From a virus, in UHGV virus genome UHGV-0239440: a stretch of 25,919 nt of DNA; one strand, given 5' to 3'. Positions 11,820 to 13,536 of the stretch are shown here, one piece after another (the first letter of the stretch is position 1; the number at the start of each line of letters is the position of its first letter). A model generated the notes under the pieces. That model did not search any database. It was not told the DNA's origin and worked only from the letters and a program-made list of their open reading frames with translations. The translations under genes and the position numbers were made by a program.

Positions 11820-11897
11820 GGGAGATTGACGGTAATTGGTAAACCTATCTCGCTTAGAACGAGATGTTTGAGGGTTCGAATCCCTTGTCTCCTACCA
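11820..11897 (+). tRNA. tRNA with anticodon TAG (leucine anticodon) but short variable loop
   Basis: Acceptor GGGAGAT/GTCTCCT (two G-U); anticodon stem ATCTCG/CGAGAT loop CTTAGAA; variable loop only 4-5 nt; discriminator A; 78 nt. Confidence 0.55.
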
Positions 11898-11904
11898 AAT
11901 TAAT

Positions 11905-11980
11905 GCAGGTGTAGCAAAATGGTTATGCGGCTGACTCTTAATCAGTAAGACGATTGGTTCAATTCCCTCCACCTGTACCA
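11905..11980 (+). tRNA. tRNA-Lys-like (anticodon CTT), paralog of 10186-10261
   Basis: Nearly identical D- and T-arms to tRNA-Lys(TTT); anticodon stem CTGA/TCAG with loop CTCTTAA. Confidence 0.65.
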
Positions 11981-11986
11981 GATATT

Positions 11987-12062
11987 GGGGATGTAGTTTA
12001 CATGGTTAAAACATAAGTTTTGCAAACTTAAGTACAGGGTTCAATTCCCTGCTTCTCCACCA
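11987..12062 (+). tRNA. tRNA-Ala (anticodon TGC)
   Basis: G3-U70 wobble pair in acceptor (Ala identity element); anticodon stem TAAGT/ACTTA loop TTTGCAA; D-stem GTTT/AAAC. Confidence 0.75.
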
Positions 12063-12068
12063 ATTAGT

Positions 12069-12143
12069 GCATCCATAGTTTAAACGGGAAAATTACAGTC
12101 TTCCAAACTGAGGTTGAGGGTTCGATTCCCTCTGGATGCTCCA
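12069..12143 (+). tRNA. tRNA-Gly (anticodon TCC)
   Basis: Acceptor GCATCCA/TGGATGC perfect; anticodon loop CTTCCAA; T-arm GAGGG-TTCGATT-CCCTC. Confidence 0.75.
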
Positions 12144-12149
12144 AATAAT

Positions 12150-12226
12150 GCTGCTTTCGTATAATTGGCTATTACACATCCCTTGTAAGGATGGAAATGC
12201 AGGTTCGAGTCCTGTGAGCAGCACCA
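12150..12226 (+). tRNA. tRNA-Thr (anticodon TGT)
   Basis: Acceptor GCTGCTT/GAGCAGC; anticodon stem CATCC/GGATG loop CTTGTAA; T-loop TTCGAGT. Confidence 0.75.
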
Positions 12227-12321
12227 ATTCAGAGGTCAAGTGAAAGACCGCTGGTGTCAACTGAAGACCGTAACAAATTCCACGGAGTTGAGTTAGCGGC
12301 ACAACTTCAGACCTCTTTCAT

Positions 12322-12396
12322 ACTCGCTTAGTTTATATGGTAAAACATCACCATTACAAGATGAAGAAAAAGGTTCAAGTCCTTTAGTGAGTACCA
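12322..12396 (+). tRNA. tRNA-Val (anticodon TAC)
   Basis: Acceptor ACTCGCT/AGTGAGT; D-stem GTTT/AAAC; anticodon loop ATTACAA; T-arm AAAGG-TTCAAGT-CCTTT. Confidence 0.7.
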
Positions 12397-12397
12397 T

Positions 12398-12475
12398 GTT
12401 CCAGTATCCCAATTGGCAGAGGATGCAAGCTCAAACCTTGTATTAGTGACGGTTCGAATCCGTCTTGGAACACCA
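12398..12475 (+). tRNA. tRNA with anticodon CAA (leucine anticodon) but short variable loop
   Basis: Acceptor GTTCCAG/TTGGAAC; anticodon stem GCAAG/CTTGT loop CTCAAAC; T-arm GACGG-TTCGAAT-CCGTC; discriminator A; 78 nt. Confidence 0.55.
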
Positions 12476-12480
12476 ATTTT

Positions 12481-12556
12481 GCAGGATTAGTTCAAATGGA
12501 TAGAGCAACAGTCTACGAAGCTGTTAATAGGGGTTCGAATCCCTTATCCTGCGCCA
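12481..12556 (+). tRNA. tRNA-Arg (anticodon ACG)
   Basis: Acceptor GCAGGAT/ATCCTGC perfect; anticodon stem ACAGT/GCTGT loop CTACGAA; T-loop TTCGAAT. Confidence 0.8.
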
Positions 12557-12574
12557 GATAAGTAAGAGGGATTT

Positions 12575-12817
12575 ATGCAAACACTAATCGTCGTTGAACA
12601 TGAAAATTCCAATAGTATTGAGTTTGTAAGGGTTCCCACTATAGATACCCACATTTTCTTGAAAGTCGGATGGAGATGTGACCCAATAAAAGTAGAAAAT
12701 TTTATTGGTCATTACTTTGGTGGAAGACAACTTAAAAGCGTCAATTTTGAGACAATGTTACCAGAAAACTCAGAAACAAATAATAATGTTTATCTCCTTA
12801 CGAGGATTAGACAATGA
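12575..12817 (+). CDS. hypothetical protein (80 aa)
   Basis: ORF track; AAGAGGG RBS 5 nt upstream; ATGA overlap with next gene. Confidence 0.5.
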   Translation: MQTLIVVEHENSNSIEFVRVPTIDTHIFLKVGWRCDPIKVENFIGHYFGGRQLKSVNFETMLPENSETNNNVYLLTRIRQ

Positions 12818-13371
12818 GATATCTGAAGTATGCTTCATGGATTTTCTTAGCTTTGTTAGAGCCATTTGCAGCAATCTTAGCAGTTATCTTAGCACCCTTT
12901 GTAGTCCCATTCTACAGTGAGAAGAAAGGACATCTACCTTTTGGATTCAGATGGATGGAGACATATGACAACCCAATTGATGGTGATAAAGGTCATGTTG
13001 AACGATGGGCTAAGATTAGAAAGATTGGTAAGCTTGGTGTCTATATGCAGAGAGTCGGTTGGCTCTGGAGAAACAAAGCTTATAACTTCTCTTACCATGT
13101 GTTAGGAAGAGATGTAAAAGATGTTACTAAGTGGAAAGGTAATATCAATGTAAGTTCTAACCCTGAAGATAATCAGACAGGTTATCTCCTAATGTGGAAC
13201 AGTAATGCTTGGGGGTTATTCGCTTTTGTACCATCAATTAAAATCTTTGGTAAACAATTCTACTGGAGAATTTATGTTGGATGGAAACTTAAAAGTGTTG
13301 TCCCAGAAGAAAGAGCATTCTCAAGGGAAAGAGTTATGTTGGCATTCTTTATTCATCCACTAAGAAAGTAA
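12814..13371 (+). CDS. putative membrane protein (185 aa)
   Basis: ORF track; N-terminal hydrophobic segment WIFLALLEPFAAILAVILAPFVVPF; GAGGA RBS. Confidence 0.55.
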   Translation: MRYLKYASWIFLALLEPFAAILAVILAPFVVPFYSEKKGHLPFGFRWMETYDNPIDGDKGHVERWAKIRKIGKLGVYMQRVGWLWRNKAYNFSYHVLGRDVKDVTKWKGNINVSSNPEDNQTGYLLMWNSNAWGLFAFVPSIKIFGKQFYWRIYVGWKLKSVVPEERAFSRERVMLAFFIHPLRK

Positions 13372-13379
13372 AGATTTAA

Positions 13380-13455
13380 AGGGGATTAGTTTACAAGGTT
13401 AAAACCTCGGTCTTTGAAATCGAAGAAGTTGGTTCAATTCCAACATCCCCCGCCA
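13380..13455 (+). tRNA. tRNA-Gln (anticodon TTG)
   Basis: Unpaired 1-72 (A-C), anticodon stem TCGGT/ATCGA loop CTTTGAA, T-arm GTTGG-TTCAATT-CCAAC, discriminator G. Confidence 0.7.
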
Positions 13456-13457
13456 AT

Positions 13458-13536
13458 GCTCCATTACTCCAATTGGCAGAGAGGCCAGACTTAAAATCTG
13501 TGTTATGTATCGGTTCGAATCCGATATGGAGTACCA
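13458..13536 (+). tRNA. tRNA with anticodon TAA (leucine anticodon) but short variable loop
   Basis: Acceptor GCTCCAT/ATGGAGT; anticodon stem CAGA/TCTG loop CTTAAAA; T-arm ATCGG-TTCGAAT-CCGAT; discriminator A; 79 nt; D-arm nearly identical to 12398-12475. Confidence 0.55.

Follow-up and report, generated by a model that had tools for sequence, protein, structure and literature searches.

Three tRNA genes with the leucine anticodons UAG, CAA and UAA lie in the tRNA island of a 25,919-nucleotide stretch of viral DNA (UHGV virus genome UHGV-0239440; "the window" below means this whole stretch), and all three lack the long variable arm, which textbooks and recent reviews present as a constant of bacterial tRNA-Leu. 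They are probably genuine, selectively maintained type I leucine tRNAs of a FelixO1-like phage, which the host's leucyl-tRNA synthetase (LeuRS) would charge. Type I tRNA-Leu is a known kind of molecule; the setting is unexpected, in that the hosts of these phages are said to have a LeuRS that charges type II tRNA-Leu only. Judged by its sequence, the window belongs to Felixounavirus, the FelixO1-like phages of E. coli and Salmonella: the island region is 95–98% identical to 258 phage records, nearly all of them Felixounavirus (FelixO1-like myoviruses), with Escherichia, Salmonella, Shigella and Citrobacter as hosts. The genes themselves are already known, since many of these records annotate "tRNA-Leu (x3)" here and tRNA-Leu labels are found in hundreds of GenBank records; Leu-TAG also appears in the original Felix O1 genome paper (Cove score 52). 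The point at issue is their architecture.

ARAGORN places the anticodons TAG, CAA and TAA exactly where the initial annotation, made by a hand fold, had put them, and Rfam agrees (44.0–47.5 bits, with a gathering score of 29 bits for RF00005), which refutes the possibility raised there that the fold had misplaced them (Table 1). The ARAGORN cloverleafs have a 7-bp acceptor stem, a 5-bp anticodon stem, a 7-nt anticodon loop (CTTAGAA in Leu(UAG), CTCAAAC in Leu(CAA) and CTTAAAA in Leu(UAA)), a standard T-arm, A73 and an encoded CCA in all three genes. The variable regions comprise 5 nt (TGTTT), 6 nt (ATTAGT) and 7 nt (GTTATGT), respectively, and form no hairpin. With 75–76 nt per gene when CCA is left aside, there is no room for a long arm that might have been missed. 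The gene lengths, 7-nt anticodon loops, short variable loops and A73 described initially are thus borne out, as is the contrast within the island, where tRNA-Tyr and both tRNA-Ser retain variable hairpins. ARAGORN detects no class II tRNA-Leu anywhere in the window, which covers the whole island.

The D-arms consist of a 3-bp stem and an 11-nt loop, with one additional base in Leu(UAG). Those of Leu(CAA), TATCCCAATTGGCAGAGGAT, and Leu(UAA), TACTCCAATTGGCAGAGAGG, share the 13-mer CCAATTGGCAGAG, which occurs exactly twice (positions 12409–12421 and 13469–13481; 0.01 chance matches expected). This shared D-arm had been noticed initially and called unusual; the sharing holds, but the arm matches the standard tRNA-Leu D-arm, as seen from E. 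coli leuW, whose D-arm GCGAAATTGGTAGACGC has the same AAU(U/C)GG loop plan. A G1.U72 pair is present in Leu(UAG) and Leu(UAA), as in E. coli leuZ, the 3:70 pairs of the three genes are G-C, U-A and U-A, and Leu(UAA) has a C27.U43 mismatch at the top of its anticodon stem. The genes bear no marks of pseudogenes, with U8, A14, G18G19, U33, the T-loop and A73 all present, and their anticodons read sense codons and are not of the CUA/UUA/UCA suppressor type. Single-strand minimum free energy folding is non-discriminating for tRNAs (z-scores −1.4 to −1.8) and does not recover the cloverleaf of the UAA gene.

Table 1. tRNA features of the window, with the three short leucine tRNA genes first
Feature	Coordinates	Strand	Basis
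tRNA-Leu(UAG), type I, 78 nt with CCA	11820..11897	+	ARAGORN; Rfam RF00005, 44.5 bits
tRNA-Leu(CAA), type I, 78 nt with CCA	12398..12475	+	ARAGORN; Rfam RF00005, 44.0 bits
tRNA-Leu(UAA), type I, 79 nt with CCA	13458..13536	+	ARAGORN; Rfam RF00005, 47.5 bits
tRNA-Tyr(GUA), class II, variable hairpin, 88 nt	9558..9645	+	ARAGORN; internal contrast
tRNA-Ser(UGA), class II, variable hairpin, 90 nt	11476..11565	+	ARAGORN; internal contrast
tRNA-Ser(GCU), class II, variable hairpin, 93 nt	14559..14651	+	ARAGORN; internal contrast
tRNA island, 26 genes including the three tRNA-Leu	9003..14731	+	ARAGORN; Rfam

Leucine identity and proposed charging by the host enzyme

We compared the phage genes arm by arm with E. 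coli K-12 leuZ (UAA), leuX (CAA) and leuW (UAG) and find that they match the host tRNAs in arm plan outside the variable region. Both sets share the three anticodons, the D-arm plan from position 8 to 26, U48 (directly ahead of the T-stem in all three phage genes), the T-loop and A73. Positions 8–26 of Leu(CAA) and Leu(UAA) reproduce the host tRNA-Leu plan exactly (U8, a purine at position 9, a 3-bp stem, the loop xAAUUGG(C/U)AGA, the 3-bp closing strand and position 26), and the D-arm is therefore an ordinary tRNA-Leu D-arm. The structural change is limited to the variable region, in which 5–7 unpaired nucleotides take the place of a 13–15-nt hairpin (15 nt in leuZ, 13 nt in leuX and leuW). 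The stem sequences of phage and host tRNAs are unrelated, and anticodon-loop positions 32, 37 and 38 differ. At position 37, the loop of Leu(UAG) (CUUAGAA) carries an A and that of host leuW (UUUAGGU) a G, which we take to be the m1G37 site; among viral Leu genes with NAG anticodons, 51 short genes have A37 and 31 have G37, compared with 26 and 54 long genes.

The E. coli LeuRS needs A73, A15:U48, G18G19, A20a and the tertiary pairs between D- and T-loop, and requires neither the anticodon nor the long variable arm, such that a minimal tRNA-Leu without anticodon and variable arms is still charged (PMC9976931). The listed elements (A73, U8:A14, A15:U48, G18G19, A20a and the T-loop partners) are complete in all three phage genes, and six homologs carried by T5-like, Erwinia and Acinetobacter phages have them as well. 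We trained a naive Bayes isotype classifier on arm-registered positions of ∼2,100 tRNAs, with the anticodon masked, the variable region left out except for its last base (position 48), and short Leu genes kept out of training. Cross-validation recovered 167 of the 180 long Leu tRNAs and gave a Leu call for 3 of 1935 non-Leu tRNAs. The classifier calls all three phage genes Leu, with margins of 4.9 (CAA), 2.8 (UAA) and 0.1 nat (UAG), a call toward which its training is tilted by the many long Leu genes that were found via an AATTGG motif. For the homologs in the related phage Sf14, a 2025 paper gives tRNAscan-SE isotype scores that rank Leu first (67.4, 49.1 and 60.2), and the anticodon loops listed there match those of the window except for one base in the UAA gene. 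The identity set, the Leu-type D-arm, the anticodon-blind classifier, the Sf14 scores and the covariation described below all favor the first option of the initial annotation, that of atypical Leu tRNAs: the three genes appear to be genuine leucine tRNAs on a type I plan, with charging predicted from sequence.

We propose that the 26 genes of the island are transcribed together, that the tRNAs are processed by host enzymes, and that the host LeuRS would leucylate the short tRNAs because the enterobacterial enzyme reads A73 and the D/T-loop core and not the anticodon or the arm. No synthetase gene is found within the island. Leu(UAA) would then decode UUA and UUG, Leu(CAA) would decode UUG, and Leu(UAG) would decode CUA and CUG, possibly more, that is, A/U-rich Leu codons of which the phage makes heavy use. 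Among the Leu codons in open reading frames (ORFs) of the window, TTA accounts for 29%, TTG for 12% and CTA for 9%, and the three anticodons thus directly serve half of the Leu codons of the phage.

Published indications on charging conflict. E. coli LeuRS is reported to accept arm-deleted E. coli tRNA-Leu that retains A73 and the D/T-loop tertiary pairs (Larkin et al. 2002, Asahara et al. 1998 and Tocchini-Valentini et al. 2000, as summarised in PMC9976931); these are laboratory constructs of E. coli sequence, whereas the phage genes are natural and have stems unrelated to those of the host. Fan et al. 2019 (PMC6614811) describe a type I tRNA-Leu(CAA) from Streptomyces coelicolor that is leucylated, and state that almost all bacterial tRNA-Leu are type II. 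Like the phage genes, the Streptomyces and other actinobacterial type I genes combine a Leu anticodon with A73 and a variable loop that is short and unpaired (of 5 nt in the actinobacterial genes), and the Streptomyces tRNA coexists with a bacterial-type LeuRS. Unlike it, the phage genes reside in a virulent enterobacterial phage whose host LeuRS is reported not to charge the Streptomyces tRNA, they have no type II partner in the phage, all of whose Leu tRNAs are short, two of them have loops of 6–7 nt, and their CCA is encoded. A further natural parallel is the human mitochondrial tRNA-Leu(UUR), which likewise lacks a long arm and has A73 and A14 as identity elements; animal mitochondrial tRNA-Leu, however, has a loosened structure and a dedicated mitochondrial LeuRS (PMC9976931), whereas the phage genes keep the canonical bacterial core.

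Several points weigh against the proposal that these are leucine tRNAs charged by the host. Assayed at 1 nM with in-vitro transcripts, E. coli LeuRS failed to leucylate the type I tRNA-Leu(CAA) of Streptomyces, and it is described as charging type II tRNA-Leu only (PMC6614811). This failure is relevant to the phage genes because the D-arms are nearly the same (actinobacterial TAGCCCAATTGGCAGAGGCA compared with that of Leu(CAA), and likewise close to that of the UAA gene). In addition to the tilt of the classifier, Leu(UAG) is only marginally Leu-like in it, and this gene has one extra base in the 8–13 region, ahead of A14, which renders its D-stem register ambiguous. For a class I tRNA, a variable loop of 6 or 7 nt is non-canonical. 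Charging and amber-suppressor experiments with T5 lend no support either, since the T5 tRNA-Leu(UAG) is a long-armed class II tRNA. On the other hand, the genes from Streptomyces sp. and Streptacidiphilus contain one extra D-loop base compared with the phage genes; as recognition by E. coli LeuRS involves the D-loop (G18G19 and A20a are determinants), one may speculate that this Streptomycetaceae base explains the failure of the E. coli enzyme.

Conservation and spread of the short form

Leu(UAA) is conserved at ≥99% identity in 216 phage records and is 100% identical in most of 264, and Leu(CAA) is conserved at ≥99% in 160 records; for comparison, the adjacent spacer reaches ≥99% in 111. Leu(UAG) occurs as two alleles, with 73 records at ≥95% and 93 records at 80–90% identity to the window. 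The second allele, as found in Salmonella phage UAB_69, has 8 differences, all of them in the 10-nt anticodon stem (arm 11846–11862), in which TCTCG/CGAGA is replaced by CCATC/GTTGG. Four of the five pairs are kept and one becomes U30.U40, a mismatch also found in the T5-like gene (CCGTC/GTCGG). This is the behavior of a functional tRNA, and the difference between the alleles could reflect selection on the arm or gene conversion. A few records label Leu(UAG) "tRNA-OTHER" or pseudogene; these labels are probably wrong, and the second allele may be their cause.

We quantified covariation across nine short Leu genes that similarity searches connect: those of the window together with genes from a T5-like phage, an Erwinia Kolesnikvirus and an Acinetobacter phage. 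Changes were counted on ARAGORN-registered arms, as MAFFT shifted the acceptor register in three sequences with an extra D-arm base. Although the stem sequences of the nine genes differ almost completely, 96.7% of stem cells are paired, compared with 46.7% in a control slid by one position, and double compensatory changes are seen at 18 of 20 pairs. In 152 unique viral genes pairing amounts to 97%, with double compensatory changes at all 20 pairs. Together with the record counts, this argues that the three Leu genes are selectively maintained.

The short form is not confined to Felixounavirus. There are two short Leu genes in the T5-like Escherichia phage VEc33 (MN316588.1), three in Erwinia phage Omen and one in Acinetobacter phage Rocket, and all three phages keep long tRNA-Ser and tRNA-Tyr. 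T5 itself (NC_005859) encodes a long tRNA-Leu(UAG) (85 nt, including an arm of 13 nt) in an Ala-Leu-Ser position that is the site of the short gene in VEc33; short and long forms thus replace each other within a genus. In the tRNA-Tyr of Omen (6364–6446) and Rocket (5200–5285), ARAGORN draws variable regions of 10–13 nt as unpaired, and the arm looks partly reduced. VEc33 also contains an unannotated tRNA with a CTA anticodon between tRNA-Glu and tRNA-Phe (8119–8195; "tRNA-Pyl", of the amber-suppressor type, in ARAGORN). The corresponding position in T5 is occupied by tRNA-Trp(CCA), and the VEc33 gene may be a natural case in which one base change in the anticodon turned a Trp tRNA into an amber suppressor.

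We scanned viral sequences in IMG/VR with patterns that combine the Leu D-loop, a Leu anticodon and the T-loop, defining short genes as those of 80 nt or less; only ratios within the length-neutral scan are usable as frequencies. The short-spacing scan yielded at least 154 short and at least 54 long Leu genes in at least 120 loci (ARAGORN). Among the matches listed for the length-neutral scan, 21 of 111 motif-matched Leu genes are short (19%), and at the same loci 41 of 164 unique Leu genes (25%), none of 54 Ser genes and 2 of 21 Tyr genes (10%). Across the viral samples listed, 0–1% of Ser and 8–10% of Tyr genes are short. The premise of the initial annotation that bacterial and phage tRNA-Leu are normally class II hence needs qualification for phages, where about one fifth to one fourth of the sampled tRNA-Leu are short among the matches listed. 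Short Leu genes are found in denser arrays, with a median of 9 compared with 3.5 tRNAs per locus among the viral loci listed. Short and long viral Leu genes have A73 (∼93%), U48, the 11-nt D-loop and the 1:72 and 2:71 profiles in common. We considered G1.U72 as a hallmark of the short form but rejected it, as 40% of the short viral Leu genes and 32% of the long ones carry this pair. When the variable region was excised, the nearest neighbor fell into the same length class in 78% of cases, with 50% expected, a figure that relatedness between contigs may inflate; this suggests persistent short lineages with several transitions.

The frequencies in the length-neutral viral loci follow the order set by the identity rules, Leu before Tyr before Ser. 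The size of the variable arm is the main identity element for seryl-tRNA synthetase (SerRS) (PMC9976931). Since SerRS needs the arm and LeuRS does not, Leu may be the single class II isotype able to lose it. The viral tRNAs provide a clean natural illustration of the rule, Leu often losing the arm, Tyr rarely and Ser almost never, in line with the arm requirements of the two synthetases (PMC9976931).

In bacterial genomes, the short pattern returned 112 short Leu genes. About 72 of them are solitary and chromosomal, the majority from Actinobacteria; about 30 others belong to arrays of 10–35 tRNAs in cyanobacteria, Mycobacterium, Acidobacteria, Planctomycetes and Myxococcota. A solitary chromosomal short tRNA-Leu(UAA) is present in many Corynebacteriales and Micrococcales, for example in Nocardia, Mycobacterium and Pseudarthrobacter, and these UAA genes extend beyond the published CAA case of Streptomyces. 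Certain tRNA arrays contain complete sets of short Leu genes; one Cylindrospermum array holds five (TAG, GAG, CAG, TAA and CAA). A BLAST search with Leu(CAA) against 5,426 E. coli genomes gave no match even at E = 10, and these genomes accordingly harbor no host or prophage copy of the gene.

Alternative readings and the loss of the arm

One account, compatible with host-charged type I tRNAs, explains why the arm was lost: the short arm would be an anti-defence trait, by which tRNAs escape host toxins or nucleases that recognize class II tRNAs through the arm. We consider it unlikely, although there are precedents for such recognition. The nucleotidyltransferase toxin MenT3 requires the long variable loop to modify tRNAs efficiently, and deletion of the loop ends efficient targeting, but the toxin prefers Ser over Leu tRNAs (PMC11541572). 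AbiEii, an abortive-infection toxin with an apparent preference for class II tRNAs, left the M. tuberculosis tRNA-Leu-3 transcript unmodified, and no known toxin attacks tRNA-Leu of enterobacteria via the arm. The association of the short form with dense viral arrays would fit this account, as would mycobacterial tRNA arrays, which have been described as a putative anti-defence system (PMC12803027), and the restriction of the Leu(UAG) allele differences to the anticodon stem, suggestive of selection on a recognition surface. Chromosomal type I tRNA-Leu occurs, however, in Actinobacteria, where escape from host defence by a phage is no obvious issue, and nothing in the window ties the tRNAs to a defence system. 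In its broadest form, in which virulent phages and mobile arrays repeatedly spread an arm-less Leu tRNA that is invisible to AbiEii/MenT-type or undescribed enzymes, the idea is similarly doubtful; it would imply, against the published statement, that the LeuRS of enterobacteria accepts type I tRNA-Leu of natural origin. The other candidate cause is a neutral or economy-driven loss, which would be unopposed because the arm is dispensable for LeuRS.

It is improbable that the genes specify tRNA-shaped RNAs that the host LeuRS does not charge, be they decaying genes, decoys, or processing or regulatory elements. This reading can draw on the failure of E. coli LeuRS with the architecturally similar Streptomyces tRNA-Leu(CAA) (PMC6614811) and on the pseudogene or tRNA-OTHER flags that some annotation pipelines attach to Leu(UAG). 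Yet pairing, anticodon loops, A73 and CCA are kept across at least four phage lineages amid abundant compensatory change, three complementary Leu anticodons are retained, and most of the 264 Leu(UAA) records are identical throughout. Decay would not keep the LeuRS identity set, and the window, which spans the whole island, offers no long tRNA-Leu as an alternative.

We give hardly any credence to recoding, the second option raised initially, in which class I tRNAs of another isotype would insert a different amino acid at Leu codons: the UAG-anticodon precedents from yeast-clade mitochondria are a tRNA-Thr with an 8-nt anticodon loop and a tRNA-Ala with G3:U70 (PMC7609411), and the phage genes have 7-nt loops throughout, no G3:U70, no suppressor anticodon and no long arm, and therefore no SerRS recognition (PMC9976931), whereas their D-arm plan and A73 are Leu-specific, as reflected in the low rate of false Leu calls by the classifier, and the cognate codons are used at ordinary Leu frequencies in the phage. 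Other synthetases generally read anticodons that these three tRNAs lack. A whole-sequence nearest-neighbor isotype assignment, which gave neighbors of mixed isotypes for the CAA gene and could be read in favor of recoding, was dropped as noisy, since ordinary tRNAs were misplaced too.

Significance and genome setting

Genuine type I leucine tRNAs charged by the host LeuRS would mean that the accepted specificity of enterobacterial LeuRS needs correction, and would provide natural compact leucine tRNA scaffolds for engineering. If the host LeuRS does not charge them, a highly conserved set of phage tRNAs is left without an assigned role. The Felixounavirus phages, whose Leu tRNAs are solely short-armed, are a well-studied group that infects E. 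coli and Salmonella, and some are being considered for therapy or biocontrol. In viral tRNA arrays, the short tRNA-Leu is common and has apparently not been described before. The one published bacterial exception we located is the single Streptomyces tRNA, in the very paper that states that E. coli LeuRS charges the long form only, and the phrase "type I tRNALeu" occurs in the searched literature only there (PMC6614811). We found no prior account of short-armed tRNA-Leu in phages or tRNA arrays in a search that left out most subscription journals, so that an older description is possible. Short-armed Leu tRNAs in phages or arrays go unmentioned in the papers on the Felix O1 genome and on the Sf14 tRNAs, in a global survey of viral tRNA genes, in two papers on tRNA arrays and in a review of non-canonical tRNAs.

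The island is flanked by a gene for a predicted RNA-binding protein on one side and the large terminase gene on the other, and contains, besides the tRNAs, an HNH endonuclease ORF and small ORFs without assigned function. The 471-residue ORF just upstream (7422–8837, + strand) matches phrog_850, "RNA-binding protein" (E = 9e-183), and also Pfam DUF2828 and DUF7788; its position beside the 26 tRNA genes hints that it may take part in RNA handling. The HNH endonuclease ORF (∼10344–10844, + strand; phrog_2255, E = 6e-34) lies amid the tRNA genes, between tRNA-Met (10266–10342) and tRNA-Ile (10838–10913). Homing endonucleases are also present in the tRNA clusters of T4 and T5 and in bacterial tRNA arrays. 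Finally, two records assigned to phages of other hosts, GU169904.1 (Staphylococcus phage SA1) and MG065664.1 (Campylobacter phage A132), contain tRNA-island sequence that is 95–100% identical to Felixounavirus, which probably represents contamination or mixed assembly.

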